This document shows positions 6,393 to 55,984 of a stretch of 64,000 nucleotides of DNA, one piece after another. Origin of the DNA: Ilumatobacteraceae bacterium (GTDB lineage Bacteria; Actinomycetota; Acidimicrobiia; Acidimicrobiales; Ilumatobacteraceae); assembly GCA_031430695.1 (NCBI GenBank), contig JANPBZ010000134.1, positions 8,683 through 72,682 of the forward strand, in the 5' to 3' direction. The number at the start of each line of letters is the position of its first letter. Within the stretch, counting starts at the first letter, position 1. The position numbers and the translations under genes were made by a program. Below the pieces are notes generated by a model. It did not search any database, was not told where the DNA came from, and was given only the letters and a program-made list of their open reading frames with translations.

Positions 6393-6407
6393 GGCTACCG
6401 TTCTAGC

Positions 6408-17056: not shown

Positions 17057-17077
17057 CTTGCGTCACGTTCACTCAAG
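17057..17077. promoter_or_regulatory. Second HAIR operator (one mismatch)
   Basis: CTTGcGT-cacgttc-ACTCAAG lies 47 nt upstream of the dnaK ATG. Confidence 0.75.
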
Positions 17078-17123
17078 TTTGAGCCGTCCACCCCCAATTG
17101 TTTGCATCGAAGGAGTCACCCCC

Positions 17124-33588: not shown

Positions 33589-33802
33589 AATACTTCTCGC
33601 AGGGTTGAAATTGTCAAGGTCTCGGCAAGAATGCCGATGAAATCCCTGGTGAGAATGAAGATTCACGTCAGAGGGCTGGGCTCGAGACGTGTGGTTCGGT
33701 GGACGAACGCACAACTCGATCGCTGCACGGGTGCCGGCGCCAACTCGGCGCGCCCCCATTCGGACTCACTATATTCCTGTCGGCGGCCGGGCCTGTTCAC
33801 AC

Positions 33803-36800
33803 ATGGCTGACGACAGACCCTCCTCAAACAACGCCTCCCGCTGGTCGGGTCTGCGACGAAGCGCTCTCGCGACCGCGCTCGTCAGTGGATCTGTTGTGTT
33901 CGGCACCGGCCTGTTCGTTCCCTCGGTCGCTGCGGCTCCACTCTGCGCTTCACCGCCACTGACGGGCAACACGACTGCCACCGGTGTGATCAACACCTAC
34001 TACCCCGGTCAGACCTCGATCACAGCTGGCACGTCGAACACGACGGTGACGGTCGGAACGAGTCGCGGCTCGGCGACTCCGATCGCGGTTGGCGATCTTG
34101 TGATGGTGATGCAGATGCAGGGCGCAGAGATCAACGCGACCAACACCAACGCGTACGGCGACGGTGTCACGTCCGCGACGGCGTCAGGGTTCTTGAACAA
34201 TGCCTCGTTCATCGCCGGGCAGTACGAGTATGCGACCGTGCGCTCGGTGGCCGGAGCAGTGGTCGGGCTCGATGGTTCGGGTACGAACGGCGGACTCATC
34301 AACAACTACGTCAACGCCAGCGAGTCGGCGACTCAGGGTCAGCAGCGGTTCCAGGTCGTGCGCGTGCCGCAGTACTCGTCGGCCACATTGAGCGTGGCGA
34401 CGCCGCCTGCTGCCGTGGCGTGGGACGGCTCGAGCGGCGGCATCGTCGTGCTCGATGTCGCCAGCGATCTCAACCTCAACGGCGCGACGATCAACGTCAC
34501 CGGCCAAGGCTTCCGTGGCGGTCTGCAGCGGAGTCGAAGCGGCACCGGCGGGTTGGCCAACACCGACTACCGAACGACCACCGCGCAAGCAGCGAATGGT
34601 CAAAAGGCGGAAGGCATCGCCGGAACCACGAAGTGGACCACCGGTTCGGCCGACACCGTCGGCGACGGATATCCGAACGGCGACTTCGGCCGCGGCGCAC
34701 CCGGCAATGCCGGCGGTGGTGGGACCGACGGCGACCCGGCTTCCAACAGCGAGAACTCCGGCGGCGGTGGCGGAGGCAACGGCGGTGCCGGCGGCGTCGG
34801 AGGCAACACCTGGTCGTCGAACCTCGCACGCGGCGGGCATGGCGGTGCTGTGGTGCCCGGGACCGCGAGCCGAGTGTTCCTCGGCGGTGGCGGTGGCGCC
34901 GGCAGCGACAACAACGCAGTCCTTTCGTCAAGTGGTGGCGCAGGCGGAGGCATGGTGCTGGTGCGCGCCGGCAGCCTGTCGGGCACGGGCACGATCAACG
35001 CCGACGGCGCAGCCGGAAACGTGAGCGGTCAAGACGGCAGCGGTGGCGGCGGGGCAGGCGGCTCGATCGTCGTGCTCACTTCCTTGACCGGAGCGGCAAG
35101 CGGTATCAGCGGCCTGACGGCTCGTGCCCGAGGTGGTGCCGGCGGCAACGAGACCCACGCCGATCAACATGGCCCGGGTGGCGGCGGTGGCGGCGGGCGA
35201 GTGATCACTGCGGCTGCTACCGCATCGACCGTTGTCACAGCTGGAGCCAACGGCACCCACGTCCCGACGAGCAGTGCCTACGGTGCAACGAGCGGTAGCG
35301 CTGGTGCGTCGTCGGCGACTGCGGTCGTCGGCGATGCCCCAGGCACCAACACCGGCTCGCAATGCATCGATGCAAGTGTCACCAAATCGACCAACCCCAC
35401 CCCCGTGATCCCTGGCCAGACAGTGACCTATACCGTGGTGGCCACCAACGACGGCCCGTACCCTCGAACGGGCACGGCGCCAATCGTGGTGACCGACACG
35501 TTGCCCGCCGGGCTCACCTCGGCGACATGGACGTGCAGCGCCTCGGCCGGATCCAACTGCACCGCCAGCGGCAGCGGATCGTTGAGTACGACCGCCAACC
35601 TCGAGGTCGGTGACTCGGCGACATACACGATCACCGCGACCCTGGCGTCGACATTCACGGGGACCCTCTCCAACACCGCCACCGTCGCCGGGCCGGCGAC
35701 GATTCCTGAGCTCAACGCCACGAACAACTCGGCGACATCGGCCGTCCTGGCCGAACCACGCGCCAACCTTGGCATCACCAAGACGGACGGAGTCGCTGCT
35801 GAGGTACCCGGCACCAATGCCGTCTACACGATCGTGGCGTCGAACGCCGGTCCCTCCACGGCAACCAACGCACTGATCACCGATTCACTGCCGGCGGGCA
35901 CGATCTCGGGTTCGTGGACGTGCGCAGCCGGCAGCGGGGGCACATGCGGTGCGGCAAGCGGCACGATGCCGATGTCGACGACTGCGACCCTCTCGCCGAG
36001 CGGCACGGTGACGTATACCGTCACCGTCGCTGTGTCGTCGACCGCCACCGGTTCGCTGGCCAACACGGTCACGATCGCCGCCCCGGCCGGAACCGTCGAG
36101 ACCAACTCGGCCAACAACGTCGCGACCGACACCGACAACTTGACGCCGACGGCCGACCTGTCGATCTCGAAGACCGACGGTCTCACCACCATTGATGCCG
36201 GCACCGGCCTCACCTACACCATCGCCCTCTCGAATGCCGGCCCATCGGCGATCACCGGAGCGACGGTCACCGATACCTTCCCTGCCAGCCTGACCGGCGC
36301 AACGTGGACGTGTGCCGCGTCGGCTGGGTCGAGTTGCCCGGCATCGGGCTCCGGCAGCATCTCCGCATCCGTGAATGTTCTTGCTGCCGGCTCGGTGACG
36401 TTCACGGTGACCGCCACGGTGGTCTCCACTGCGACCGGCACGTTGTCGAACACGGCGACCGTTGCATTGCCCGGTGGGGCGACTGACCCGACCGCGGCCA
36501 ACAACACAGCCACCGACACCACGACCATCACCCGCCGAGCCGATGTCTCGATCACCAAGACCGACGGGGCCGCCACGGAGGTGCCGGGAACGTCGGTGAC
36601 CTACACGATCGTGGCGGCGAACGCCGGACCGTCTGCGGCGATCGGCACGAGCGTCACCGATACGTTGCCGGCCAGCCTCACGGGCGCGACCTGGACCTGC
36701 ACAGCCACCGCTGGGTCGACCTGCCCGGCATCGGGCAGCGGCAACATCAGCACCACGGTCGACCTACTGCCCAGTGGTAGCGCAACGTTCACCCTGACCG

Positions 36801-39800
36801 CCACGATCGCGTCGACCGCCACCGGGTCGCTGGCCAACACCGCCACCGTCGCAGTCGCCGCCGGAGTCACGGACCCCGCCGCTGGTAACAACTCGGCGAC
36901 CGACACCGACACGCTGACACCGACCGCCGACCTGTCGATCACCAAGACCGACGGTGTCACCGGCGAGGTGCCGGGAACGGCGGTGACGTACACGATCGTC
37001 GCCTCCAACGCCGGCCCGTCAACCGCCACCGCCGCAACCGCGACGGACACGCTGCCGGCCGTGTTGTCGGGTGGCACATGGACATGCTCGGCGTCCGTCG
37101 GCTCGACGTGTCCCGCATCGGGCAGCGGCAACATCAACGCCAGCGTCACGCTGGCTCCGGGCGGTACGGCGACGTTCACACTCACTGCCACGATCTCGAG
37201 CAGCGCCACCGGCAGCCTGGCCAACACGGCGACCATCGCCGCCCCGGCCTCGGTGACCGACCCGACACCTGGCAACAACTCGGCCACCGATGTCGACACC
37301 CTGACTCCCACCGGTGATCTGTCGATCACCAAGACCGACGGAGTCGCCACCGCGATCCCCGGGCAAAGCGTGACGTACACGATCGTCGCGACCAATGCCG
37401 GCCCGTCGGTGATCACCGCAGCGACCGTCGCCGACACGTTCCCCGCGTCGATCGCCGGCGCGACCTGGACATGCTCGGCCTCCGCCGGTTCGAGCTGCCC
37501 GGCATCGGGCAGCGGCAACATCAACGCCAACGTCAATCTGGCAGTCGCCGGCACGGCGACGTTCACCGTGACGGCACCCATCTCGCCGACGGCCACCGGC
37601 TCGTTGGTCAACACCGCAACGATCGCCGCGCCCGCCGGAAGCAGTGATCCGAGCGGCGCCAACAACTCGGCGACCGACACCGACACGTTGACACCGACGG
37701 CCGATCTGTCGATCACCAAGACCGACGGTGCAGCCACCGAGGTGCCAGGCACGCCCGTGACGTACACAATCGTCGCCTCGAACGCCGGGCCCTCCGCGGC
37801 GTCGGGCTCGAACGTCGCCGACACCTTCCCCGCCGCACTCACTGGTGCAACGTGGACGTGCTCGGCAGGCGGCGGAGCGACGTGCCCGGCGTCGGGTAGC
37901 GGCAACATCAGTGCGACGGTCGACCTGCCGGTGGGTGGTACGGCGTCGTTCACGGTCAACGGCACCGTCGCCGCGGGCGCAACGGGCTCGCTGACCAACA
38001 CGGCGACCGTGTCGGTCGGCGCAGGCATCACGGATCCTGCGCCGGGCAACAATGCCGCGACTGACACCGACACCCTGACGCCGACGGCAGATCTGCTGAT
38101 CACCAAGACCGATGGGGCCACCACCGAGGTGCCCGGGACATCGGTGACCTACACGATCGTGGCCTCCAACGCCGGCCCTTCGACGATCACCGCGGCAACC
38201 GTCACCGATACGATGCCGGCCTCGCTGAGCGGCGTGACCTGGACGTGTTCGGCTTCGGCGGGCTCGTCGTGCCCGGCCTCTGGCTCGGGCTCGATCAGTG
38301 CTTCCGTCACCTTGGTCTCCGGTGGAGCGGCGACGTTCACGGTCACCGGCGCCATTTCGGCGACTGCCACGGGATCGCTGGCCAACACGGCCACGGTGGC
38401 GCTGCCCGGAGGTGCCACCGACCCTACACCGGCCAACAACTCGGCCACCGACACCGACACACTGACGCCGACCGCTGATCTGTCGATCACCAAGACCGAC
38501 GGATCGGCAACCGAAGTACCGGGCACAGCGGTGACCTACACGATCGTGGCCAGCAATGCGGGCCCGTCCGCCGTCACTGCCGCGACGGTCGCCGACACGA
38601 TGCCCGCCGCGCTCACCGGGGTGACCTGGACGTGCTCCGCCAGCAGCGGTGCCGCCTGCCCGGCGAGCGGCAGTGGCGACATCAACGCCTCGGTCGACCT
38701 GCCCGTGGGTGGTTCGGCGACGTTCACCGTCTCGGCAACGATCTCCGCGTCGGCGACGGGCAACCTCGTCAACACCGCAACGGTCGCGGCGCCGGGTGGG
38801 GTCACGGATCCGACGCCGGCGAACAACTCGGCGACCGATGCCGACTCGCTGATCCCGACCGCTGATCTGTCGATCACCAAGACCGATGGTGTTGTGACGG
38901 AAGTGCCGGGCACCGCGGTGGCGTACACGATCGTGGCGACCAATGGGGGTCCGTCGGCGGTCAGCGCGGCGACGATCGCCGACACCATGCCTGCTGCATT
39001 GACCGGGGTGACGTGGACGTGCGCCGGTGCCTCGGGTGGGACCTGCCCGGCGAGCGGCAGCGGCAACATCAACGTCAGCGTCGATCTGCCAGTCGGCGCC
39101 TCGGTGACGTTCACCGTCTCGGCGACGATCTCCACCTCGGCGACCGGCACGCTGGTCAATACGGCCACGATCGCGCCGCCTGCCGGCGTCACTGATCCGA
39201 CGCCGGCGAACAACTCGGCGACCGATACCGACACCTTGAACCCCACGGCTGACCTGTCGATCACCAAGACCGATGGGTCTGCGACCGAGGTGCCGGGCAC
39301 TGCGGTGACGTATACGATCGTGGCCGGCAACTCGGGTCCGTCGGCCGTGATCGCGGCGACGGTTGCCGACACGATTCCCGCAACGCTCAACGGCGCGACA
39401 TGGACCTGCGTGCCGGCCGGTGGTGGGTCGTGTGCAGCCAGCAGCGGCAGTGGCAACATCAGCACGACCGTCGATCTGCCGGTCGGCGCGACTGCGACGT
39501 TCACGATCTCGGCCACCGTGGTGGCAACGACCACGGGCAACCTGGTCAATACGGCATCGATCACTGCGCCGGGCGGGGTCACCGATCCGACGCCTGCCAA
39601 CAACTCGGCGACCGACACCGATACCTTGAATCCGACGGCCGATCTCTCGATCAGCAAGACCGACGGAGTCGCCTCGGTCATTCCCGGCCAAAGCACGACG
39701 TACACCGTCGTGGTCGGCAATGCCGGCCCGTCGACCGCGGTGAACGCACCCGTCGCCGATGCACTTCCTGCTGGTGCGACTTCCGGTTCGTGGACGTGTG

Positions 39801-42800
39801 CCGCGTCTGTCGGCGCAAGCTGCGGTGCTGCATCGGGATCGATGCCGATCGCGACCACCGTCACCATCGCCGCCGGCGCGACTGCGACGTACAACGTGGT
39901 CGTCGCGGTCTCGTCGACTGCTACAGGCTCGTTGACCAATACCTCGACGGTGCAGGCACCGGCCGGAGTGACCGACCCCGTGTCGGCCGACAACTCGGCC
40001 ACCGACATCGACTCGCTGACCCCGACCGCCGATGTGTCGATCTCAAAGACCGATGGCCTCACCACCGTGGTGCCCGGCGCCAACGTCACCTACACCGTGG
40101 TCGCCTCCAATCCCGGTCCTTCGACCGTGACCGGTGCGACAGTCAGCGACACGATTCCCGCGGCGTTGAGCGGCGCAACCTGGACGTGCTCGGCCAGCGG
40201 CGGGTCGACATGTCCGGCCACCGGCAGCGGCGATCTCGCCGCGTCGGTCACCCTTGCTCCGGGCGGGTCGACAACGTTCACGATCTCGGCCACTGTCGTT
40301 GCCTCGGCCACCGGCACGATCTCCAACACAGCGACGATCACGTTGCCGGGCACAGTCACCGACCCGACGCCCGCCAACAACTCGGCCACTGACCTCACCA
40401 CCGTGACACCGCAGACCGACCTGACCATCACCAAGACCGACGGGACTCCGACAGCGGTGCCGGGCCAGTCGACCACCTACACGATCGTGGTCACCAACAC
40501 GGGACCATCCAGCGTCACCGGTGCGGCTGTGACCGACACGATGCCCGCAGGCGTGACGACGATGAACTGGTCGTGTGCCGGTTCGGGTGGCGGAAGCTGC
40601 CCGGCGGCGGGCAGCGGTTCGATCAGCGACAACGTCGACCTGCCGGTCGGTGCGTCGGTCACGTACACCGTCACGGTCGCAGTGGCCGCAGGCGCGACGG
40701 GAACGTTGACCAACACTGCCACCGTCGCCGCACCGCTCGGTGTCACCGATACGAACGCAGCGAACAACACCGCGACCGATGTCGACACGCTGACGCCACG
40801 TGCCGATCTGGCGGTCACCAAGACCGATGGCGTCGCCTCGGTGATCCCCGGGCAATCGACGACCTACACGGTCACAGTGACCAACGCTGGCCCATCGGAT
40901 GCCCCGAACACCGTTGTCACTGACGCCACGCCCGTCGATGCCTCGTTCACGTCGTGGAGCTGCTCGCCGAGCGCCGGCGCCGCCTGCTCGACGGCATCGG
41001 GAAGCGGGTCGATCAACACCTCCGTCGATCTGCCGCTCGGCACGATCGTCACGTTCGTCGTCGACGCCGCGATTGACGCCGCGGCCACTGGCACGCTCGG
41101 CAACACGGCGACGGCCGCCCCGGCGCCGGGCATCACCGACCCTGTTGTCGGCAACAACTCGGCCACCGATACTGACACGCTCACACCGACCGCTGACCTG
41201 GCGATCACCAAGACGAACCTTCTCAGCACGGTGGTGCCGGGCGATCCGATCAGCTACACCGTCACGGCCTCGAACTCCGGCCCGTCGTCGGTCGTCGGTG
41301 CATCGGTCGTCGATGCGTTGCCGGCCTCGTTGACGGCGGCAACGTGGACCTGCGCGGCGTCGGGTGGCGGCTCGTGCACATCGTCGGGTTCCGGTTCGAT
41401 CAACGAAACCGTGAACCTGCCGGTCGGAGCGACAGTGATCTACACGGTCGACGGAGTCGTCGCCTCGGCAGCGATCGGCAGCATCGACAACACCGCAACC
41501 GTGGGAGTGCCGGTCGGGGTGACCGATCCGGTCGTCGGCAACAACTCGGCCACCGATAGCGATCCGTTGACCCCCGAAGTCGACCTGTCGATCACCAAGA
41601 CCGACGGCCTTGCCATTGCCGACCCGCTCGATGCCGTGACCTACACGATCGTGGTGTCCAACGACGGGCCTTCGTCGGTGTCCGACGCGCAGGTCGTCGA
41701 CCTGATTCCGGCGGCTCTGCTCGGGGCGACGTGGACCTGTGCATCGGGCGTCGGGGGCAACTGCGACCTGGCCGGCCCGGTCGCCGGCGACATCAACACC
41801 ACCGTCGATCTGGCCGTCAACGGCTCCGTGCAGTTCACCGTCACCGCCACGATCGCCGGGTCGACGATCGGCACGGTCATCAACACTGCCACCGTGTCGG
41901 CTCCGTCCGGTGTGAGCGAGACCAACAGTGCCGACAACGCGGCGACCGATGCAACGGCCGTCACCTCGACCGCAGCCCTGTCGATCACCAAGACCGACGG
42001 ACAAGCCACCGATGTGGCAGGCACTTCATCGACGTACACGATCACCGTCGCCAACTCCGGTCCATCGGCAGTGATCAACGCGGCGGTGGCCGACGCGCTG
42101 CCGCCCGCATTGACCAATGCGACCTGGACGTGCACGGCCTCCGGTGCCGGCAACTGCGACGACGCCGGACCCACAGCGGGTGACATCAACTCCACCGTCG
42201 ACCTGCCGTCGGGCGAGTCGGCAACCTTCACGGTCACCGCAACCGTCGATCCGAGCTTCACCGGGTTGCTGTCGAACACGGCCACCGTCACCGCGCCGCC
42301 CGGCACGATCGACGATCCGTCGAACAACAGCAGCACCGACGACACCACAGTCGTCGCCGAAGCCAACCTGACCGTCGCCAAGTCCGACGGCACAGTCACG
42401 GCGACTCCGGGGGCCGACACCACGTACACAGTGACCGTCGACAACGCCGGGCCTTCAGCCGTGGTCGGCGCGACCGTCGGCGACGTGTTGCCCGCCGGGG
42501 CGACGGCGATGAACTGGACATGCGCCGCCAGCGTTGGGTCGTCGTGCACCGCTTCGGGAAGTGGCTCGCTCGGTGACACCGTCGATCTCCTGCCCGGCGG
42601 CCAGGTGACCTACGTCGTCATCGTCGACATCGACGCTGCGGCCACAGGCCTGCTGACCAACACCGCCACTGCAACTGTTCCCCCGACCATGACCGAGACA
42701 TCACCGCTCGACAACACCGCAACCGACATCGACAGCCTGGTTGCCGAGACAGACCTGGCGATCACCAAGACCGACAACACGCTCGCCGCGGTACCTGGCA

Positions 42801-48800: not shown

Positions 48801-51800
48801 CGGTGACCTTCACCGTGGTGATGGCAATCGACTCCTCGGTGACCGCTGACGTGACGAACACCGCGACGGTGGCCGCACCCAGCGGCGTCACCGATCCAAA
48901 CTCTGGCGACAACGCTGCCAGCGACACCGACACCATGCTGTTGGTCGCTGATCTGTCGATCACCAAGACTGATGGCTCGGCGACCGTGACGCCCGGCACG
49001 ACCGTCGTCTACTCGGTGACCGCATCGAACGCCGGCCCATCCGACATCGCCGGCGCGGCGGTCACCGACCTCGTGCCGGCCGCGCTCACCGGGGCGACGT
49101 GGACCTGCGCCGGAACGAGCGGAGGAGCATGCACCACCGCGACCGGATCGGCACCGATCAACCAGTCCGTCGATCTGCCGGTCGGTGGCTCGGTCACGTT
49201 CACCATCACGGGTGTGGTCGATCCGGCACTGGTCGGCGACCTCGTCAACACGGCAACGGTTGCCGCGCCGGTCGGCGTGATCGACCCGAACCCAGGCAAC
49301 AACTCGGCAACTGACCTCGACACCAACACTCCGGTCACCGACCTCGCCGTCAGCAAGACCGATGGCCTGACATCGGCACTGCCCGGCGACGTGGTGACCT
49401 ACACCGTCACGGTTTCCAGTGCCGGCCCATCCGATGCCGTCGGCGCATCGTTGATCGATGCCGTGCCGGCTGTGCTCACCGGCGTGACATGGACCTGCGC
49501 TGCGGTCAATGGCGGCTGTGTTGCCAGCGGCACGGGCTCACTGAACGAGTCGATCGACGTAGCCGTGGGTGGCACGGTGACGTTCTCGATCACCGGAACC
49601 GTCGTCGGCACAGCGACTGGAACGATCACCAACACGGCCACAGTCATGGCGCCAGCAGGCGCGAACGATCCCAACCCGGGCGACAACTCGGCCACCGATG
49701 CGACGACCGTGAATCCGAAGGCCGACCTGTCGATCACCAAGACCGATGGCAATCTCAGCGATGTTGCCGGCACCACGGTGACATACACGATTGAAGTCGC
49801 CAACGCCGGTCCGTCGATGATCACCGGCGCACCGGTGGCCGACGTCATGCCCCCGGCGCTCAGCGGAGCGACGTGGAGTTGCACGGCGACTGCCGGGTCG
49901 GTGTGCGGCGGGGTCGGTGGCGCCGGTGACATCGCCGCGACGGTCGATCTGCTCGCCGGTGGTGTGGCTACCTTCACGGTGACCGCGACGATCGACGCTG
50001 CCTTCACCGGCACGCTGACGAACACCGCGACCGTGGCCATGCCCGGCCCCGGTGTGGATCCGACGCCCGGCAACAACATCGCCGTCGACACCACCGACGT
50101 CGTGGCAGTCGCTGATCTGTCGGTGACGAAGACTGATGGTGTGGTGTCGGAGGTGCCTGGTACTGCGGTGTCGTACACGATCGTGGTGTCGAACGCCGGT
50201 CCGTCGGATGTGGTCGGTGCGTCGGTGAGTGATGTGATGCCGGTGTCGTTGTCGAATGTGTTGTGGTCGTGTGTGGGTGTGGCTGGTGGTGTGTGTTCGC
50301 CGTCGGGTACGGGTGATGTCGTTGATGTGATCGATGTGGCTTCGGGTGGCTCGGTGACGTACTCGGTGTCGGGTGATTTGGCTGCTGATGCGTCCGGGGT
50401 GTTGGTCAATGCGGTGTCGGTGGTTGCTCCTGGTTCTGTGACGGATCCGGATCTGTCGAACAACTCGGCGAGCGATGTCGACACGTTGGTGCCGACTGCT
50501 GATCTGTCGGTGACGAAGACTGATGGTGTGGTGTCGGAGGTGCCTGGTACTGCGGTGTCGTACACGATCGTGGTGTCGAACGCCGGTCCATCGGATGTGG
50601 TCGGTGCGTCGGTCACCGACGTCTTCCCGGCGACGCTCATCGGCGCCTCGTGGACCTGCGTCGCCGTGAACGGTGCCTGCCCGGCGTCCGGTAGCGGCAG
50701 CATCAGCGAATTGGTCGACCTGGCAACAGGCGGCACTGCAACGTTCACCGTCACCGCCACCTTGTCGAGTTCGGCCACAGGATCGATCACCAATACGGCC
50801 ACCGTCACGCCGCCGGCGGGCGCGACGGATCCGGATCCGACCAACAACTCTGACGCCGACACCGACACGCTCGATGCCGTTGCCGATCTGTCGATCACCA
50901 AGACCGACAACGACACGAATGCTCGCCCGGGAGACCTGATCACGTACGAGATCGTTGCCTCCAACGCCGGTCCGTCGGCGATCACTGGCGCTGTTGTCAG
51001 TGACGCGATGCCCGCGGGAGTCTTTGGCGTCAGTTGGACGTGCGCAGCCGGCAGTGGCGCCACGTGCCCGGCGTCGGGTATCGGTGATCTGAACGAAACA
51101 GTCGATCTGGCCGTCGGCGCCTCGGCGACGTTCACTGTCACGGCGACCGTCACGGCCTCCGTTGGATCGATCACCAACACCGCGCAGATCGATGCACCCG
51201 CCGGTGCCACGGATCCGAACACAGCCGACAACGTCGCCAGCGACACCACCCAGGTCGACCCGCTCGGTGATTTGTCGATCACCAAGACCGACGGTCTGAC
51301 GTCGGCCGCGCCGGGAGCAGGGATCTCCTACTCCATCGTTGTTTCCAACAGCGGTCCGTCGGCGGCCGCAGGCGTCGCTATCAGCGACACCGTGCCCCCG
51401 TCGTTGTCGGGTGTCACCTGGTCGTGCACGGCCAGCCCCGGATCCGCATGCACCAATGCGACCGGCACCGGCGACATCAGCGAACTTGTTGATCTCGCTG
51501 CCGGTGGTTCTGTTTCGTTCATGGTCGCGGCAACGATCGACGCCGATGCCACGGGTGTGCTCAGCAATACCGCGACGGTGGCTCCACCCTCCGGCTTCGC
51601 CGACTCCGACTCCGCCAACAACTCGGCCACCGATGTCACCGACCTGGATCCGGCGGTCGACCTCGCCGCGACGAAGACCGATGGGCAGGTCATCGCGATC
51701 CCCGGCACGCCGATCAGCTACATCATCGTCGTCACCAACGCCGGCCCGTCGGTGGCCGCGGGATCGCAAGTGCTCGACAGCCTGCCTGCGTCGTTGCTCG

Positions 51801-54800
51801 GAGCGACCTGGACATGTAGCGCGGCACCGGGATCCTCGTGCGGTGCGCCGTCGGGTAGCGGCTCGATCGACGAGATCGTGACCGTCGGCGTCGGCGGCAC
51901 CCTCACGTACATCGTTGCTGCTTCCGTTTCACCATCTGCCGTGGGAGTGCTCGCCAACACCGTCACCGTCATGCCCGCCCTCGGCACCGGCGACACGAAT
52001 GCCGGCAACAACTCGGCGACCGACGTCGACTCGCTGTCGCCGCAGGCCAACGTGAATGTTGTCAAGACCGACGGAGCAGCCGCGGCTGTGCCGGGCACGA
52101 CGATCACCTACTCGATCATCGTCAGCAACGCCGGCCCATCCGCTGTGTCCAATGCCGCCGTTGCCGATGTGCTGCCGGCAGAGCTCATCAATGCCACCTG
52201 GACGTGCACGGGCTCGATCGGTGGCTCGTGCGATGCGGTCTCGGGCATCGGTGGCATCGTCACGACGGCCGATCTGCAGGCCGGCTCCGCTGTGACCTAC
52301 ACCCTGACTGCCACGGTCGTCCCCGTCGCTACAGGCACCGTGGTCAATACCGCAACGGTGAGCGTGCCGGTGGGTGTCGTCGACTCCGATCTGACCGACA
52401 ACTCGTCGACCGATATCGACAACCTCACTCCTTCGGTCGACCTGTCGATCGCCAAGACAGATGGTGTCACATCGGTGGTTCCGGGGACCTCGACCACCTA
52501 CACGATCATGGTTGCAAACAGCGGGCCGTCAACGGCGGCCGGTGCTCAGATCACGGACCTGTTGCCCGCAGAGCTCATCAATGCCAGTTGGGGGTGCACC
52601 GCTTCGGGCGGCGCGACGTGCGGCACCCCCAGCGGCTCTGGCGACGTATCGCTGCTGGCCACACTGCCGGCCGGCGGATCACTGACGATCGATGTCGATG
52701 CCGATATCGACCCGACCGCCACGGGCTTCGTCGTCAACACGGCAACGGTCACAGGACCTGTCGGCGTGACCGACACGGACCCCGCCAACGATTCTGCGAC
52801 CGACAGCGATGTACTGACTCCAACGGCCGACCTGTCGATCACCAAGGACGACGGTCTGGCGACGGCATTGCCCGGCGACCCCGTGGCCTATGCCATCGTG
52901 GTCACCAACAACGGCCCGTCCGCAGTCGTCGGCGCGACCGTCACTGATGTGATGCCCGCCGGGTTGTCGGCGGTGACATGGACGTGCAGCGCTTTGCCGA
53001 GTTCGTCGTGCGCGTCCGCTGCGGGTGGCGGGGACATCGCGACCACGGTCGATCTGGCCATCGGTGAGTCGGCGACGTTCGTGATCGACGCGACGATCGC
53101 GATTAGCCAAATCGGTGTCGTGACCAACACCGCGACCGTCGACGCCCCAGTGGGGGTCACCGATCCCAACAGCGCCGACAACATCGCCATCGACACGACC
53201 ATGGTCAACGGGCTCGGCGACGTGTCGATCGTCAAATCCGATGGTGTTGCCACGATCGTTGCCGGAACCTCGACTACGTACACGATCGTGGTCACCAACC
53301 CGGGGCCGTCGCAGATCGACCGCATCCAGGTGATCGACTCGTTGCCGGCTGCATTGATCGGTGCGAGTTGGACCTGCGCGGCGACCGGTGCAGCGTCGTG
53401 TAGCGCAGCATCAGGCTTCGGTTCGATCAGCGAGATGATCGACATGCCGGCCGCGAGCACCGTCACGTTCAGCGTGACGGCCACGGTGTCACCCTCTGCC
53501 AGTGGCACGCTTTCGAATACTGCGTCGGTGACGTTGCCGACTGGCATCGTGGACTCCGACCTGACCAACAATGACTCGACTGATGTCACCGACATCGACA
53601 GGATCGCCGATCTGGCCGTGACGAAGACCAATCACGTCTCGGCGCTCACGCCTGGCAACTCGGTCGGCTACGACATCACCGTCGTCAACAACGGGCCTTC
53701 ATCGGTCAGCGGTGCCACGCTCAGCGATCTCGTTCCCGCCTCGATCACCGGTGTCACGTGGACGTGTACAGCGGGCGCCGGGGCCGCATGTGGAGCGGGC
53801 GCCGGCAGCGGCAACGTGTCGCTCAACCTCGATCTCGCGGTCGGCGCGAGTGTGGCCGTACGCATCACCGGCACGGTGTCGCCGAACGCAGCCGGAACAC
53901 TGACCAACTCCGCAACGGTCGCCCCGCCTGTCGGCGTCACCGACCCCGATGTCGCAGACAACACAGCCACAGATACCGACACGCTCGACCCGGTCGCCGA
54001 CGTGTCAGTGGCCAAGTCGAACGGCGTCACGTCGCAGTCGCCAGGTGCAACGTCGTCGTACACCATCACCGTTGCCAACGCCGGGCCTTCTGCGGCCGCC
54101 GGCGTCACCATCGACGACCCGCTGCCTTCGGGCGTGGCGACTGCCTCGTGGACATGCTCGGCAGCGGCAGGTTCGTCGTGCGCCGCTGCGTCGGGAATCG
54201 GAGCTGTCAACACCACCGTCGACCTTGCCGCGGCCGGAACTGTGACGTTGACGGTGTCGCTGCAAGCCGGCCTGTTCGCTGGCACATTGACCAACACGGT
54301 GACCGCGACCGTGGCAGCTGGAACGACCGACCCCGACCCCTCCAACAACGTCGCCAGTGACACCGACACCTTGGTGTTCACCGCCGACATCGCTGTCACC
54401 AAGGCCGTGTCTGCGGCCGTGGTTGCAGTTGGTCAGGCCCTCAACTACACGGTCGTTGTCTCCAACGCCGGCCCCGATCGGGCGGCGGGCGTCACCGTGC
54501 TCGACACCATGCCTGCCGGCCTGGCCAGCCTCACATGGACATGCGCGGCAACCCCTGGTTCCTCGTGCCCGGCGAATGGCACGGGCGACATCACCTCGAG
54601 CATCGATCTTGCCGCTGGCGGATCGGCCACCTTCACCGTGAGCGCGACGGTGACCAGTGCCGCGCCGAACACCATCGTCAACACTGCGACTGCTGCCGTC
54701 GGGCCCGACACCATCGATCCTGATCCGACGAACAACACGGCCAGTGTGACGTTCGCGGTCGACTTCACCTCGTCGCTGTCGGTGCAGAAGACAGCCACAG

Positions 54801-55984
54801 TCGCAACCGCCCTGCCCGGAGACGCCTTCTCGTACACGATCGTGGTCAGCAATGCCGGCCCAGCGCTGCTCGACGATGTCTCGATCTCCGACCCTGTGCC
54901 GGCCGGTCTCGTTGCGCTCTCGTGGACATGCCTGGGCAGCGCCGGTGGTGTCTGCAACTCGGTCATCGGCAGCGGTTCGCCAGCACTCACTGCCGACCTG
55001 CCATTGGGTGGCTCGGTCACGATCACGTTCAACGTGCAGGTAGCACCGGGTGCCACAGGCTCGATCCTCAACATCGTCACCGCGACGGCCGGCGGGGCCA
55101 GTGGCCAGGTCACCGCGCAGGCAACCGCCAGCGTGGAAGTGAGCCCGGTCGTGCCACCGACCGCGGCACTCTCGATCACCAAGGCGACATCGGTGGCGAC
55201 GTATTCGACGGTCGGCAGCGTCGTCAGCTTCACCCTTGTCGCGAGGAACACCGGCAGTGCCACATTGACCAACGTGACAATCGCCGATCCCAACGCCACG
55301 CTGACGGCGTGCGCGCCGGTCACGCTCGGCCCGGGTCAGACACTGACCTGCTCGGCGGGCCACGTCGTGACGCAGTCCGATCTCGACCGGGGCACGTTGA
55401 GCAACACGGCATCTGTGTCGGGCGTCTCGCCGACCGGCTCCACCGTTGTCGCCACCAGCGCGACCGTGGTGGTACCCGCGCTGCCGATCACGGCTCTGTC
55501 GATCGTCAAGTCGTCGTCGGCGACCGAGTTCGTCAAGATCGGCGACAAGATCTCATACACGATCACAGCCACGAACACGGGCAACGTAACCCTGATCAAC
55601 GTTGTCATGTCCGATCCCAATGCTTCGCTGATCTCCTGCGCCCCGACCAACTTGACGCCGGGGCAAGCCCTGACGTGTACGGCTGTTCACACGGTGACAG
55701 CCGCTGATGTGGCGGCCAAGGTGATCCTCAACCAGGCGTTCGCAACGGCATTGCCGGTGACCGATTTCGAAGTGGTCTGCCCGCTCCTGGGGGCCAGCGG
55801 CCTGCAGTGCCCCAACGGTCCGACGGTCTCGGCCGAGTCCAACACCGTGGTGTTGAACCGGGCTTCGCTACTGCCCAGTACTGGTGGAACGGTTGTCACC
55901 AAGCTGATCGTCGGTGGGTGGCTCTTCGGTGTCGGCGGCCTGCTGCTGCTGGTGACCGGCCGTCGCCGCCGCGCAGCGCGCTGA
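33803..55984 (+). CDS. Giant (about 7,390 aa) LPXTG-anchored cell-surface protein made of DUF11-type repeat modules
   Basis: A single open frame runs 33689-55984. ATG 33803 precedes a signal-peptide-like N-terminus (RWSGLRRSALATALVSGSVVFGTGLFVPSVAAAP). About 51 modules of about 129 aa follow. The C-terminus is LPSTG plus a hydrophobic segment plus RRRRAAR. Confidence 0.9.
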   Translation: MADDRPSSNNASRWSGLRRSALATALVSGSVVFGTGLFVPSVAAAPLCASPPLTGNTTATGVINTYYPGQTSITAGTSNTTVTVGTSRGSATPIAVGDLVMVMQMQGAEINATNTNAYGDGVTSATASGFLNNASFIAGQYEYATVRSVAGAVVGLDGSGTNGGLINNYVNASESATQGQQRFQVVRVPQYSSATLSVATPPAAVAWDGSSGGIVVLDVASDLNLNGATINVTGQGFRGGLQRSRSGTGGLANTDYRTTTAQAANGQKAEGIAGTTKWTTGSADTVGDGYPNGDFGRGAPGNAGGGGTDGDPASNSENSGGGGGGNGGAGGVGGNTWSSNLARGGHGGAVVPGTASRVFLGGGGGAGSDNNAVLSSSGGAGGGMVLVRAGSLSGTGTINADGAAGNVSGQDGSGGGGAGGSIVVLTSLTGAASGISGLTARARGGAGGNETHADQHGPGGGGGGGRVITAAATASTVVTAGANGTHVPTSSAYGATSGSAGASSATAVVGDAPGTNTGSQCIDASVTKSTNPTPVIPGQTVTYTVVATNDGPYPRTGTAPIVVTDTLPAGLTSATWTCSASAGSNCTASGSGSLSTTANLEVGDSATYTITATLASTFTGTLSNTATVAGPATIPELNATNNSATSAVLAEPRANLGITKTDGVAAEVPGTNAVYTIVASNAGPSTATNALITDSLPAGTISGSWTCAAGSGGTCGAASGTMPMSTTATLSPSGTVTYTVTVAVSSTATGSLANTVTIAAPAGTVETNSANNVATDTDNLTPTADLSISKTDGLTTIDAGTGLTYTIALSNAGPSAITGATVTDTFPASLTGATWTCAASAGSSCPASGSGSISASVNVLAAGSVTFTVTATVVSTATGTLSNTATVALPGGATDPTAANNTATDTTTITRRADVSITKTDGAATEVPGTSVTYTIVAANAGPSAAIGTSVTDTLPASLTGATWTCTATAGSTCPASGSGNISTTVDLLPSGSATFTLTATIASTATGSLANTATVAVAAGVTDPAAGNNSATDTDTLTPTADLSITKTDGVTGEVPGTAVTYTIVASNAGPSTATAATATDTLPAVLSGGTWTCSASVGSTCPASGSGNINASVTLAPGGTATFTLTATISSSATGSLANTATIAAPASVTDPTPGNNSATDVDTLTPTGDLSITKTDGVATAIPGQSVTYTIVATNAGPSVITAATVADTFPASIAGATWTCSASAGSSCPASGSGNINANVNLAVAGTATFTVTAPISPTATGSLVNTATIAAPAGSSDPSGANNSATDTDTLTPTADLSITKTDGAATEVPGTPVTYTIVASNAGPSAASGSNVADTFPAALTGATWTCSAGGGATCPASGSGNISATVDLPVGGTASFTVNGTVAAGATGSLTNTATVSVGAGITDPAPGNNAATDTDTLTPTADLLITKTDGATTEVPGTSVTYTIVASNAGPSTITAATVTDTMPASLSGVTWTCSASAGSSCPASGSGSISASVTLVSGGAATFTVTGAISATATGSLANTATVALPGGATDPTPANNSATDTDTLTPTADLSITKTDGSATEVPGTAVTYTIVASNAGPSAVTAATVADTMPAALTGVTWTCSASSGAACPASGSGDINASVDLPVGGSATFTVSATISASATGNLVNTATVAAPGGVTDPTPANNSATDADSLIPTADLSITKTDGVVTEVPGTAVAYTIVATNGGPSAVSAATIADTMPAALTGVTWTCAGASGGTCPASGSGNINVSVDLPVGASVTFTVSATISTSATGTLVNTATIAPPAGVTDPTPANNSATDTDTLNPTADLSITKTDGSATEVPGTAVTYTIVAGNSGPSAVIAATVADTIPATLNGATWTCVPAGGGSCAASSGSGNISTTVDLPVGATATFTISATVVATTTGNLVNTASITAPGGVTDPTPANNSATDTDTLNPTADLSISKTDGVASVIPGQSTTYTVVVGNAGPSTAVNAPVADALPAGATSGSWTCAASVGASCGAASGSMPIATTVTIAAGATATYNVVVAVSSTATGSLTNTSTVQAPAGVTDPVSADNSATDIDSLTPTADVSISKTDGLTTVVPGANVTYTVVASNPGPSTVTGATVSDTIPAALSGATWTCSASGGSTCPATGSGDLAASVTLAPGGSTTFTISATVVASATGTISNTATITLPGTVTDPTPANNSATDLTTVTPQTDLTITKTDGTPTAVPGQSTTYTIVVTNTGPSSVTGAAVTDTMPAGVTTMNWSCAGSGGGSCPAAGSGSISDNVDLPVGASVTYTVTVAVAAGATGTLTNTATVAAPLGVTDTNAANNTATDVDTLTPRADLAVTKTDGVASVIPGQSTTYTVTVTNAGPSDAPNTVVTDATPVDASFTSWSCSPSAGAACSTASGSGSINTSVDLPLGTIVTFVVDAAIDAAATGTLGNTATAAPAPGITDPVVGNNSATDTDTLTPTADLAITKTNLLSTVVPGDPISYTVTASNSGPSSVVGASVVDALPASLTAATWTCAASGGGSCTSSGSGSINETVNLPVGATVIYTVDGVVASAAIGSIDNTATVGVPVGVTDPVVGNNSATDSDPLTPEVDLSITKTDGLAIADPLDAVTYTIVVSNDGPSSVSDAQVVDLIPAALLGATWTCASGVGGNCDLAGPVAGDINTTVDLAVNGSVQFTVTATIAGSTIGTVINTATVSAPSGVSETNSADNAATDATAVTSTAALSITKTDGQATDVAGTSSTYTITVANSGPSAVINAAVADALPPALTNATWTCTASGAGNCDDAGPTAGDINSTVDLPSGESATFTVTATVDPSFTGLLSNTATVTAPPGTIDDPSNNSSTDDTTVVAEANLTVAKSDGTVTATPGADTTYTVTVDNAGPSAVVGATVGDVLPAGATAMNWTCAASVGSSCTASGSGSLGDTVDLLPGGQVTYVVIVDIDAAATGLLTNTATATVPPTMTETSPLDNTATDIDSLVAETDLAITKTDNTLAAVPGTAITYTIVATNNGPSDAIGATVADTFPGELNSISWTCVGPCTPAGSGALNDVVGLPVGATVTYTVTATIAASAVGVLSNTATVTAAPGTVDPNPVNDSATDVDTLAAVADLSITKTDGAANEVPGTPVSYTIVVSNNGPSDVVGASVVDTFPLDLANATWSCVAAGGTCPVAGSGDINAVVILAVGGAATFAVTADVAASATGTLTNTATVTAPPATDPNAGNNSATDVDTLSPEVDLSVTKTDNDLVAQPGDSVTYEIVVSNAGPSAVIGAPFTDIVPSSLVGVSWTCAASSGASCPAAGSGNAINTTLSLTPGGTATFTVTATVDAPATGVIANTATIAAPVGVVETASGDNTATDTTSVTPTADLIITKTDGLTSIAAGQAITYTIVVTNAGPSTITDALVTDVLPSALVGATWTCAASAGSSCLDAAGSGDISDLVTLASTGTATFTVSATVAASTPAGTLSNTADVAMPVGSVDPTPANNTATDTTTIERHADLEVTKTDGVSSATPGLAIQYTIVVTNNGPSNVSAATVVDTMPATLIGATWTCSASVGSTCPASGSGDFASLVDLLAGGTATFTVDATVAASALGTLVNTAGATVPSGVTDPVPGNNSSTDTDTLDPVADLSITKDDFSATATPGAPVTYTVVVSNAGPSDVIGATVADVLPATLSGVTWSCSVSGSGSCPASGSGDVNSLVSLTVGATATFTITGTLSAAATANLVNTATVTAPVGVTDPAPADNSATDVDTLARVADLSVTKTDFAATATPGTAVSYQIVATNNGPSDITGAVVTDTPPAELTGVTWSCTATGGASCSNSSGVGAINELADLPVGASVTFTLTATLSPAATVPVANTVQIAVPAGATDPNPSNNTATDTDAIVPVADLSITKTVDLAAALPDDVLTYTIVVANAGPSDISDSLVDDVVPADVVGATWTCAAQAGGNCDLTGPVSGDIAGTVDLVVGGSVSFTVTGTVASTATGTIINSATVAAPAGANDPNPANNTSSASTTINPKADLSITKTDGNVTDVAGTSLQYSIVVTNSGPSTIQDAPVDDVLPAALLAVSWTCSPSAFSVCDDPAGGGDITTTVDLLAGGTATFVIDASIDPAFAGVLTNTASVTMPGVGVDPTPANNSATDLTTIVAEADLSITKTDGSLAATPGGSTVYTVTVSNSGPSTVVGAPVSDAIPAGATAMNWTCLASPGSSCAPSGSGALADTVSLLPGGAATYQATVDISSAATGAFVNTASVAAPIGVTDPAPANNSATDIDTLSPSADLSITKTDGLSNAVPGTSLTYTVVATNAGPSDAVGATINDSLPASLVGSTWTCVGTGGGTCAGAGVGNIADTVNLPTGASVTYSVTAMIDSNATGTLVNTASIAAPIGTTDPDPSDNSATDTDTLTPQSDLFVTKTDGQTNVVPGTPVTYTVVAGNAGPSAVAGATVTDLLSADLLGASWTCAAAGGRCPATGTGNIAANIDLAVGGTATFTISATVSPSATSTLANTVDVAVPSGVTDPMAGNNTATDTDTLNPEADLSISKTDGRISAQPGDAITYTLVAANAGPSAVVGAPVIDALPAGLSAASWTCAPSAGASCPASGSGNINTTVSLPVGATAIFTVTTSITATSGVVANTVQIDAPAGVSDPSTGDNVATDTTSITPTADLSITKTDGLTTVAAGEVVTYSIVATNAGPSPIIGATVADAIPGVLVGASWTCSATVGSTCANATGSGSINELADLAAGGQVTFSITGTVNGSAAPGLLSNTATITMPFGSIDPTPGNNSATDTTVIERRADLSISKDDFTGAAVAGGSTTYTVVVSNNGPSNVFGAAVSDPIPTGVTAMTWTCSATAGASCIVAGTGALATNVNLAAGSSVTFTVVVDIDAAASGLLTNIASVIPPSGVTDPNSANDSDTDVDTVAGVADLTITKDDGSSTATPGSTTTYTMVVTNNGPSNVTGATVTDLQPVGTTFDSWACTATGAASCSDPSGTGSISTTVDLAVGASVTFTVVMAIDSSVTADVTNTATVAAPSGVTDPNSGDNAASDTDTMLLVADLSITKTDGSATVTPGTTVVYSVTASNAGPSDIAGAAVTDLVPAALTGATWTCAGTSGGACTTATGSAPINQSVDLPVGGSVTFTITGVVDPALVGDLVNTATVAAPVGVIDPNPGNNSATDLDTNTPVTDLAVSKTDGLTSALPGDVVTYTVTVSSAGPSDAVGASLIDAVPAVLTGVTWTCAAVNGGCVASGTGSLNESIDVAVGGTVTFSITGTVVGTATGTITNTATVMAPAGANDPNPGDNSATDATTVNPKADLSITKTDGNLSDVAGTTVTYTIEVANAGPSMITGAPVADVMPPALSGATWSCTATAGSVCGGVGGAGDIAATVDLLAGGVATFTVTATIDAAFTGTLTNTATVAMPGPGVDPTPGNNIAVDTTDVVAVADLSVTKTDGVVSEVPGTAVSYTIVVSNAGPSDVVGASVSDVMPVSLSNVLWSCVGVAGGVCSPSGTGDVVDVIDVASGGSVTYSVSGDLAADASGVLVNAVSVVAPGSVTDPDLSNNSASDVDTLVPTADLSVTKTDGVVSEVPGTAVSYTIVVSNAGPSDVVGASVTDVFPATLIGASWTCVAVNGACPASGSGSISELVDLATGGTATFTVTATLSSSATGSITNTATVTPPAGATDPDPTNNSDADTDTLDAVADLSITKTDNDTNARPGDLITYEIVASNAGPSAITGAVVSDAMPAGVFGVSWTCAAGSGATCPASGIGDLNETVDLAVGASATFTVTATVTASVGSITNTAQIDAPAGATDPNTADNVASDTTQVDPLGDLSITKTDGLTSAAPGAGISYSIVVSNSGPSAAAGVAISDTVPPSLSGVTWSCTASPGSACTNATGTGDISELVDLAAGGSVSFMVAATIDADATGVLSNTATVAPPSGFADSDSANNSATDVTDLDPAVDLAATKTDGQVIAIPGTPISYIIVVTNAGPSVAAGSQVLDSLPASLLGATWTCSAAPGSSCGAPSGSGSIDEIVTVGVGGTLTYIVAASVSPSAVGVLANTVTVMPALGTGDTNAGNNSATDVDSLSPQANVNVVKTDGAAAAVPGTTITYSIIVSNAGPSAVSNAAVADVLPAELINATWTCTGSIGGSCDAVSGIGGIVTTADLQAGSAVTYTLTATVVPVATGTVVNTATVSVPVGVVDSDLTDNSSTDIDNLTPSVDLSIAKTDGVTSVVPGTSTTYTIMVANSGPSTAAGAQITDLLPAELINASWGCTASGGATCGTPSGSGDVSLLATLPAGGSLTIDVDADIDPTATGFVVNTATVTGPVGVTDTDPANDSATDSDVLTPTADLSITKDDGLATALPGDPVAYAIVVTNNGPSAVVGATVTDVMPAGLSAVTWTCSALPSSSCASAAGGGDIATTVDLAIGESATFVIDATIAISQIGVVTNTATVDAPVGVTDPNSADNIAIDTTMVNGLGDVSIVKSDGVATIVAGTSTTYTIVVTNPGPSQIDRIQVIDSLPAALIGASWTCAATGAASCSAASGFGSISEMIDMPAASTVTFSVTATVSPSASGTLSNTASVTLPTGIVDSDLTNNDSTDVTDIDRIADLAVTKTNHVSALTPGNSVGYDITVVNNGPSSVSGATLSDLVPASITGVTWTCTAGAGAACGAGAGSGNVSLNLDLAVGASVAVRITGTVSPNAAGTLTNSATVAPPVGVTDPDVADNTATDTDTLDPVADVSVAKSNGVTSQSPGATSSYTITVANAGPSAAAGVTIDDPLPSGVATASWTCSAAAGSSCAAASGIGAVNTTVDLAAAGTVTLTVSLQAGLFAGTLTNTVTATVAAGTTDPDPSNNVASDTDTLVFTADIAVTKAVSAAVVAVGQALNYTVVVSNAGPDRAAGVTVLDTMPAGLASLTWTCAATPGSSCPANGTGDITSSIDLAAGGSATFTVSATVTSAAPNTIVNTATAAVGPDTIDPDPTNNTASVTFAVDFTSSLSVQKTATVATALPGDAFSYTIVVSNAGPALLDDVSISDPVPAGLVALSWTCLGSAGGVCNSVIGSGSPALTADLPLGGSVTITFNVQVAPGATGSILNIVTATAGGASGQVTAQATASVEVSPVVPPTAALSITKATSVATYSTVGSVVSFTLVARNTGSATLTNVTIADPNATLTACAPVTLGPGQTLTCSAGHVVTQSDLDRGTLSNTASVSGVSPTGSTVVATSATVVVPALPITALSIVKSSSATEFVKIGDKISYTITATNTGNVTLINVVMSDPNASLISCAPTNLTPGQALTCTAVHTVTAADVAAKVILNQAFATALPVTDFEVVCPLLGASGLQCPNGPTVSAESNTVVLNRASLLPSTGGTVVTKLIVGGWLFGVGGLLLLVTGRRRRAAR
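35360..55150 (+). repeat. Coding tandem-repeat array, unit about 387 nt (129 aa), about 51 copies by hand count
   Basis: Recurrent ADLSITKTDG..EVPGT.VTYTIVASNAGPS...W(T/S)C...C...TNTATV..P.G.TDP...NNSATD.D.L.P. The anchor tcgatc(a/t)c(c/g)aagaccga recurs at 36161, 36548, 36935, 37322, 37709, 38096 (with ctgatc in place of tcgatc), 38483, 38870 and 39257. Confidence 0.9.
55871..55984 (+). other. Sortase cell-wall sorting signal (LPSTG, hydrophobic span, basic tail)
   Basis: LPSTGGTVVTKLIVGGWLFGVGGLLLLVTGRRRRAAR followed by the stop. Confidence 0.85.

Follow-up and report, generated by a model that had tools for sequence, protein, structure and literature searches.

The 64,000-nucleotide stretch analysed here (hereafter the window), from an Ilumatobacteraceae bacterium (NCBI GenBank assembly GCA_031430695.1, contig JANPBZ010000134.1, positions 8,683 to 72,682), harbours one very large gene at 33803-55984 on the forward strand. 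Its product is most probably a giant fibrillar, wall-anchored surface protein of the CLIPPER kind, a reading to which we assign a probability of roughly 0.8. From the N-terminus, the predicted protein comprises a signal peptide, a conserved head, a stalk of tandem modules belonging to the DUF11 (now CLIPPER) and DUF7507 families, and a C-terminal sorting signal of the LPXTG type. Fibrillar CLIPPER adhesins are already known as a kind, and what is new is a very large member from the Acidimicrobiia. An earlier note on this DNA, made from the sequence alone, had described a giant LPXTG-anchored repeat protein; missing from it were the identity of DUF11 with CLIPPER, the conserved AgmC_N-related head within the first 522 amino acids (aa), and the precedent of a 180-nm DUF11 fibre.

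Reading frame and start codon

The frame spanning 33689-55984 on the forward strand runs uninterrupted over 7,431 codons, the only stop being the terminal one, just as the earlier note had read it. The start that the note had placed at ATG 33803 likewise agrees with the orthologues. At 11 related loci, the homologous start codon (ATG, or GTG in one case) opens a conserved signal peptide, and at six of them in-frame stops lie between a few and about 40 codons upstream of it; at L003, which is 97% identical, such a stop occupies the position matching GTG 33689 of the window. Because of these upstream stops in orthologues, including L003, ATG 33803 rather than GTG 33689 is the start codon.

The coding sequence thus delimited (33803-55984, +), supported by the orthologues and by the ratio of non-synonymous to synonymous substitution rates (dN/dS), measures 22,182 bp, or 34.7% of the 64-kb window, close to the third estimated previously. 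It specifies 7,393 aa plus the stop, so that the claim of a single intact gene stands and the approximate length of 7,390 aa gives way to an exact figure. As computed from the sequence, the protein has a mass of 705.6 kDa and a pI of 4.05. Threonine accounts for 16.7% of its residues, alanine for 15.7%, valine for 11.0%, and serine and glycine for 10.7% each, while lysine is very scarce (0.83%), as are arginine, glutamate, methionine and histidine.

The stalk modules

Modules were counted with a profile built on the giant protein itself, which resolved 53 of them. The first 51, with a period of 125-132 aa, form the bulk of the stalk (aa 523-7121; 35369-55165, +) and equal in number the approximately 51 modules of about 129 aa that had been counted by hand. 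Two shorter modules follow (aa 7122-7337; 55166-55813, +); their number had been given correctly and they prove to be of the DUF7507 type (PF24346, now CLIPPER_2), the earlier placement at about 55150-55700 being inaccurate. The search with profile hidden Markov models proposed at that time for DUF11-type modules gave a clear answer: Pfam PF01345 recognised 52 stretches (4 + 23 + 25) with E-values down to 0, scoring 193, 1,205 and 1,283 bits for three segments against a cutoff of 24.6, and PF24346 and TIGR01451 also matched the stalk. The isopeptide family TIGR04226 gave a sub-threshold match (27.9 bits, cutoff 30).

DUF11 has been renamed CLIPPER, a domain with a CnaA-like immunoglobulin-like (Ig-like) fold and an autocatalytic Lys-Asn isopeptide bond, tandem copies of which make up the stalks of fibrillar adhesins (bioRxiv 10.1101/2025.04.25.650565). 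In the crystallised representative, Protein Data Bank (PDB) entry 9IFR, K715 and N806 are bonded and D748 is catalytic; with the bond the domain melts at about 80 °C, compared with about 45 °C without it, and the bond confers resistance to proteinase K (bioRxiv 10.1101/2025.04.25.650565). In the giant protein, K6, D40 and N99 are invariant in 51 of 51 long modules, their offsets of +34 and +93 comparing with +33 and +91 in 9IFR, and they lie on predicted strands 2-7, 33-40 and 96-104, i.e., the first, third and penultimate ones. Each long module is predicted from these residues to form a Lys6-Asn99 isopeptide bond with Asp40 as the catalyst. W51, C53 and C61 are also invariant, and the two cysteines, which flank a short loop, most likely form a disulfide. 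Each of the short modules has lysine as its sixth residue and D-P at position 41, together with the motif LSNTA or ILNQA. Since 53 of the 61 lysines of the whole protein occupy module position 6, the mature stalk would have almost no free lysine if the bonds form.

Structure prediction of a module, also suggested by the earlier note, pointed in the same direction. The AlphaFold2 (AF2) model of module 4 reached a pLDDT of 97.2 with nine strands, and its best Foldseek match in the PDB was 9IFR (E 3.2e-5, TM 0.62-0.64, 127 aligned columns), with the pilins of known isopeptide bonds (SpaA, RrgB, FimA and BcpA) ranking below it. The model thereby suggests a CnaA-like Ig beta-sandwich for the modules, the link to 9IFR being one of fold search only. 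As the last predicted strand extends to residue 125 of 129, the linkers between modules appear to be no longer than about 3-4 residues.

Authenticity of the repeat array

Repeat arrays are a classic source of misassembly, and the earlier note had itself named an assembly artefact as a possible objection. The array might be over-expanded or chimeric, or the gene a decaying pseudogene; orthologues in several long-read metagenome-assembled genomes (MAGs) carry many frameshifts, and short-read MAG contigs stop within the array. Set against this are 22.2 kb without a stop codon and a marked divergence among the modules, which share on average 49% identity in protein (range 28-81%) and 63% in DNA (maximum 80%). 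No exact repeat in the gene exceeds 92 bp; the one of that length (50111-50202 and 50498-50589) reflects the identity of modules 39 and 40 over their N-terminal halves. Modules this old and divergent leave little for an assembly to collapse or expand.

Comparison with related genomes weighs in the same direction. A scan of genome collections, which itself placed the source lineage in the Ilumatobacteraceae, yielded 13 loci with that label, 11 of which cover the full head at 80-97% identity; orthologues occur in at least 11 Ilumatobacteraceae MAGs and, where flanks were seen, in the same neighbourhood, consisting of SNF2 helicase, HAD hydrolase (in one of two), Clp ATPase, MFS, ParA-like protein, the giant gene, hisD, purA and purB. 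Both gene ends could be located in two other, independently assembled genomes, with spans of 22,559 and 22,576 bp compared with 22,182 bp in the window. In the better preserved of these (contig_EHDLDABF_115513), modules 1-53 each best match the window module of the same rank and one extra copy lies beside module 39, which accounts for the length difference of about 390 bp. The second (contig_5846) is more frameshifted; its resolved modules are in order, several ranks being unresolved. A further locus, L016, is intact and collinear over 26 of 26 modules. Against five orthologues, dN/dS was 0.11-0.17, in head and stalk alike, which indicates a functional gene under purifying selection and speaks against a pseudogene.

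In some of the MAG assemblies from long reads, the frameshifts leave the orthologue in 5-15 pieces, whereas the short-read contigs, which end inside the array, and the array of long-read locus L012 are in one frame. Because the frameshifts are confined in this way to some long-read assemblies, they are most simply explained as sequencing errors. Taken with the divergence of the repeats, the similar spans of the two related assemblies and the selection on the gene, this leaves the artefact or pseudogene reading effectively refuted. At eight loci (L001, L002, L005, L006, L008 and L027-L029, from samples ERZ25039492, ERZ25039600, ERZ1700618 and MFD bins) the gene is called as separate genes of 50-3,035 aa, and as a consequence of such frameshifted assemblies public protein sets hold the giant protein as fragments only. 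Searches for homologous proteins returned none above 2,000 aa, a result that is uninformative about the rarity of its size. One of the eight loci, L002, has a head 69% identical and lies in a different neighbourhood, appearing to represent a second, paralogous or more distant giant locus.

The same data bear on whether the protein could be a variable-length 'periscope' spacer, whose repeat number would shift fast between strains and so tune the projection of the head. What defines periscope proteins is that their DNA repeats are nearly identical and that their copy number changes often. The long tandem array of equal-size modules would suit such a role, as would the more homogeneous modules 3-11 (neighbours 66-81% identical in protein) and the spot at modules 39/40, with its 92-bp exact repeat and the extra copy in one orthologue, seemingly the sole site of continuing copy-number change in the array. 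The module DNA identities given above are nonetheless far from those of periscope repeats, for every module there is a separate orthologue in genomes with head identities of only 80-85%, and total length differs by about one module. With repeats too divergent and a length nearly fixed, the giant protein does not look like a periscope protein, and we consider that alternative highly improbable.

Export and sorting signals

The signal peptide announced by the earlier note (aa 1-45; 33803-33937, +) is recognisable in the sequence and conserved across 11 orthologues. Read by eye, its n-region is basic (RWSGLRRS), its h-region reads ALATALVSGSVVFGTGLFVPSV and cleavage is probable after AAA; AF2 places a low-confidence helix at aa 18-35 of this region. 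The RR pair of the n-region is RN or RS in some orthologues and, because it is not conserved in all of them, export through Sec is likelier than through Tat; a 7,393-aa substrate is in any case implausible for Tat. A lipoprotein signal (AAAPLC) was considered and rejected, as the -1 residue is leucine.

At the other end, the sorting region (aa 7338-7393; 55814-55981, +) has the order described previously. It contains LPSTG (aa 7357-7361; 55871-55885), the sole LP.TG in the 7,393 aa, then a span of 25 mostly hydrophobic residues (GTVVTKLIVGGWLFGVGGLLLLVTG; 55886-55960) and a basic RRRRAAR tail (55961-55981). The C-termini of orthologues keep LPxTG, where x is K, T, H, R, G or S, together with the hydrophobic span and RRRR. 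Directly upstream, at the end of module 53, lies a conserved pair of cysteines, C7326 and C7336.

Relatives in Chloroflexota and Dormibacteraeota (P0175, P0152 and P0196) carry a head and 5-9 DUF11 modules fused to a C-terminal sortase domain (PF04203), and two such CLIPPER-sortase fusion genes adjoin each other at L032 489-9011. These fusions tie the family to sortases in an unusual manner, with the enzyme and what is presumably its cargo in one chain.

An LPXTG signal combined with isopeptide-type Ig domains is also found in Gram-positive pilins such as those listed by Foldseek (SpaA, RrgB, FimA and BcpA), which raises the question of whether the protein is the subunit of a sortase-polymerised pilus. 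No YPK pilin motif occurs anywhere in it, essentially all stalk lysines sit at the position of the intramolecular bond, and the window holds no adjacent pilus sortase or accessory pilin; a monomer of 706 kDa would also be unlike any known pilin. Given the lack of a pilin motif and of a pilus sortase in the window, it is in all likelihood not a pilin. A pilus role, like the gliding role considered below, is hardly credible.

The head domain

The head (aa 46-522; 33938-35368, +), which would form the distal tip, is supported by an NCBIfam match, its homologues and the AF2 model. Its N-terminal half (about aa 50-235) is rich in beta structure, and its C-terminal half (aa 236-522) in glycine, at 30% of residues. 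NCBIfam NF047640 (gliding_AgmC_N) matches it over positions 39-409 of 412 with an E-value of 5.4e-43 and 147.5 bits; since the curated cutoff is 275, the head is best described as a domain homologous to AgmC_N and not as an AgmC equivalog. The name AgmC_N is used here as an NCBIfam label only, nothing further being inferred from it. A search of Pfam found no family for the head even at E 10, and a comparison with PDB sequences gave no match.

At least 2,404 proteins from several phyla match the head, at about 50% identity. Found in Acidobacteriota, Chloroflexota, Deinococcus, cyanobacteria and others, they are typically of 650-900 aa, with a head and 1-3 DUF11 modules. Among these homologues some 70 columns do not vary; many are polar residues (D98, Q104, Q106, E142, R187, Q190, K268, E270, D411 and H456 among them), Cys521 is included, and Cys48 is nearly invariant. 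The strong conservation across phyla suggests that the head's target would be a common one rather than a host-specific receptor. The neighbourhoods of three short head-bearing relatives showed no common partner genes.

The AF2 model of the head (pLDDT 86, pTM 0.87) is without a solved structural relative. Foldseek against the PDB returned pieces of phage tailspike or depolymerase beta-helices at TM 0.14, which were not counted as a match, and a single PHROGs match of unassigned function (E 0.013) was disregarded. Among predicted structures, the model matches prasinovirus proteins, namely a Bathycoccus virus 'PA14 domain-containing protein' (E 3.5e-16 over 481 columns) and an Ostreococcus virus protein (E 4e-10, 28% identity), as well as glycine-rich or collagen-like viral proteins. 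Because the glycine-rich half combines high pLDDT with almost no DSSP elements, we would guess at a polyglycine-II-like or solenoid structure for it.

The match to gliding_AgmC_N could be taken to favour a role in gliding motility like that of the namesake AgmC of Myxococcus. The score of 147.5 bits falls far under the equivalog cutoff, and monoderm Acidimicrobiia are not known to have gliding machinery like that of myxobacteria.

Proposed working of the fibre

From the gene structure, domain families, conserved residues, sorting motif, orthologue conservation and purifying selection described above, we infer the following course for export, anchoring, bond formation, fibre length and adhesive function. 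The precursor would be exported N-terminus first through Sec by means of its signal peptide of 45 residues. LPSTG would be cut between T and G by a sortase whose gene lies elsewhere in the genome, and this enzyme would join the protein to peptidoglycan by a covalent link. The 53 Ig-like CLIPPER and CLIPPER_2 modules would fold one by one into a thin rod, each locking itself autocatalytically through the Lys6-Asn99 bond with the help of Asp40, and a Cys53-Cys61 disulfide would probably add to the locking. Scaled from GhlA, a DUF11 protein whose 49 domains make a fibre of about 180 nm, the 53 domains would give about 195 nm, i.e., about 3.7 nm per domain and a rod of some 200 nm. With almost no lysine or arginine outside the bond-forming positions, the stalk would be expected to resist heat, pulling force and trypsin-like proteases. 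It would hold the conserved glycine-rich head about 200 nm from the wall, where the head may bind a ligand or surface, probably a widespread one.

Several observations weigh against this account. Pfam Gram_pos_anchor (PF00746) scores 18.7 bits (E 0.0017), just under its cutoff of 20. As the earlier note had remarked, the 64-kb window shows no sortase: neither scanning all six frames for motifs like TLxTC nor Pfam scans of 30 of the larger open reading frames (ORFs) gave one. Nor was one found in the ±10 kb seen around orthologues, so it is the LPSTG motif itself that suggests sortase anchoring to peptidoglycan. Actinobacterial class E 'housekeeping' sortases are moreover generally reported to prefer LAxTG over LPxTG. 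As regards the stalk, the fold match of the module model to 9IFR is moderate (TM about 0.63), and the module profile gave no useful match among PDB sequences, not even to 9IFR.

Flanking signals and neighbouring genes

A weak candidate for a sigma-70-like promoter (TTGAAA-16-AAGAAT; 33605-33632, +) lies about 170 nt upstream of the start, the consensus scan giving one match compared with none expected in shuffled sequences. Closer to the gene, an element gACTCACTAt/g located 30-40 nt upstream of the ATG is kept in all orthologues (window 33763-33802; L001, L003-L010, L016 and L029) and may act as a promoter element resembling a -10 box, in which case the leader would be short. No Shine-Dalgarno sequence was recognisable upstream of the start in the window or in the orthologues. 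Downstream of the gene, terminator search and RNA folding yielded nothing above background.

Divergent from the giant gene is a ParA/MinD-like ATPase (AAA_31, CbiA; 32663-33508, -), an arrangement kept in L001 and L029; as the whole region is syntenic, no functional link between the two can be drawn from it. Further upstream, a 511-aa ORF (17073-18608, -) matches PF10712 'NAD-GH' at 5e-140; it runs antisense to dnaK (17058-18962, +), which is followed by dnaJ (19512-20633, +), and was rejected as a gene and read as a shadow ORF of conserved dnaK sequence. Encoded 27 kb upstream of the giant gene (5103-6803, -) is a protein of 566 aa whose C-terminal domain is a UDP-glycosyltransferase of the GT1 type. 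By analogy with GhpA, a giant surface protein of Aureispira, the Thr/Ser-rich stalk could be O-glycosylated; no evidence was found for a link between this glycosyltransferase and the stalk.

Size in context and significance

An exhaustive search of 1.84 billion representative proteins with the module profile found the module in 52,041 of them. Giants were compared among the best 150 of these matches, ranked by score, so that larger divergent proteins could be missed. Within this set, lengths extend up to 6,770 aa and repeats up to 46, none reaching 51, and many of the proteins end in LPXTG/LAXTG signals or in C-terminal domains of the kind used with type IX secretion systems (T9SS). The statement that proteins of this size are unusual thus needs qualifying: DUF11 giants of 4,000-6,800 aa are not rare, and the present protein equals or surpasses the upper limit of size observed among those best 150. 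Other families include bacterial proteins that are far larger. An AgmC_N-like head occurs in only three of the best 150 of 52,041, and its pairing with so long a stalk is uncommon.

The gene reveals no new mechanism; its interest lies in other respects. It encodes one of the longest known CLIPPER arrays, with 53 predicted self-locking domains in a single chain, and offers protein engineering a natural 53-unit series of divergent isopeptide domains. The intact sequence can serve as a full-length reference, public orthologues being frameshifted or truncated, for a family of bacteria common in metagenome surveys and carrying the gene in at least 11 of its MAGs. The gene further draws attention to its head, a widespread domain with neither a Pfam family nor a solved structure.

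Comparison with known systems

All 51 long modules share their Pfam family with the CLIPPER adhesin B9T28_05395 of Acinetobacter silvestris, the source of 9IFR (bioRxiv 10.1101/2025.04.25.650565). The likeness extends to the predicted CnaA-like Ig fold, the Lys/Asp/Asn triad and its near-equal spacing and, for CLIPPER adhesins as a group, to the plan of a tandem stalk between a signal peptide with head and a C-terminal sorting signal. Sequence identity to 9IFR is only 21%, without a direct sequence-profile match, and the disulfide sites differ, being a predicted C53-x7-C61 loop in the giant protein and a CxxC in the last strand of 9IFR. The carrier of the giant protein, moreover, is not a host-associated bacterium but a free-living lineage of the Acidimicrobiia.

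Closest in size and make-up is GhlA, the grappling-hook-like protein of Litorilinea aerophila (WP_141610714.1; A0A540VE73), a protein of 6,596 aa with 49 DUF11 domains that has been seen experimentally to form polar three-stranded fibres of about 180 nm (bioRxiv 10.1101/2025.08.19.671072; PMC13319060). Both are giant single polypeptides consisting almost wholly of DUF11 modules (49 compared with 51 + 2), and both belong to bacteria without a classical outer membrane. GhlA is reported to have no signal peptide, LPXTG is not mentioned for it, and it forms a three-stranded filament. A second counterpart, GhpA of Aureispira, is 5,898 aa long; to its Sec signal and N-terminal hook are joined 52 Ig-like repeats and a sorting domain for T9SS, and it assembles into a 240-nm heptamer (bioRxiv 10.1101/2024.01.29.577165). 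It resembles the giant protein in its Sec signal, distal N-terminal binding module, approximately 52 Ig-like repeats and C-terminal surface-sorting signal. As a T9SS substrate it is anchored in the outer membrane through PorP/PorE homologues, whereas the giant protein carries an LPXTG/sortase signal suited to a monoderm wall; the heptamer further differs in its inter-domain disulfides and O-glycans.

These two systems raise the possibility that several parallel copies of the giant protein bundle, as in the GhlA trimer or the GhpA heptamer, into a rigid grappling-hook-like fibre that catches cells or particles. This would refine the proposal of a wall-anchored CLIPPER fibre and does not exclude it. 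The GhpA-like plan, the stalk family shared with GhlA (49 DUF11 domains in 6,596 aa compared with 53 modules in 7,393 aa), and the very short linkers and the module order fixed between species, which fit a structure of defined length, lend it some support. The heads agree less well. Tryptic peptides of GhlA from aa 257-382 are not glycine-rich and its head looks unrelated, a weak test in which peptides only were compared; the GhpA hook is described as an adhesin-like loop and not as an AgmC_N-like domain. The GhpA disulfides, moreover, connect domains, while the two cysteines here lie 8 residues apart in one loop. Bundling therefore seems to us possible but unlikely.

The giant protein does have the architecture of a grappling hook, that is, a giant single chain whose N-terminal module is distal, whose stalk counts about 50 Ig-like repeats and whose anchor signal is proximal. 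More speculatively, and with small probability, a free-living member of the Acidimicrobiia may possess, in a covalently wall-anchored fibre of fixed length (about 200 nm), the monoderm, sortase-dependent counterpart of the T9SS grappling hook, with a tip that is directed at a universal target or enzymatic. If so, that tip would be a glycine-rich fold without a solved relative, shared at about 50% identity by at least six bacterial phyla and having structural relatives in algal giant viruses, and its target might be, for example, a common polysaccharide or the surface of another cell, in which case it would not be a niche-specific adhesin.

With AgmC (NF047640), the homology of the head extends over nearly the whole profile, although the score is about half the equivalog cutoff. 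The short head proteins of 650-900 aa, whose heads are about 50% identical, likewise pass directly from head to DUF11 modules; proteins of this AgmC-type family usually have 1-3 modules, with up to 13 in fragments seen, compared with 53 here, and some end in a fused sortase domain in place of an LPXTG signal. Classical giant Gram-positive stalk proteins of the Ebh, SasG and Rib types share the general plan of signal peptide, tandem Ig-like stalk, LPXTG anchor and projected N-terminal domain, but are built from other repeat families, whereas the modules of the giant protein would each be covalently locked. From periscope-type proteins it is set apart by repeats that are old and divergent and not near-identical, for which reason its length is probably fixed rather than variable.

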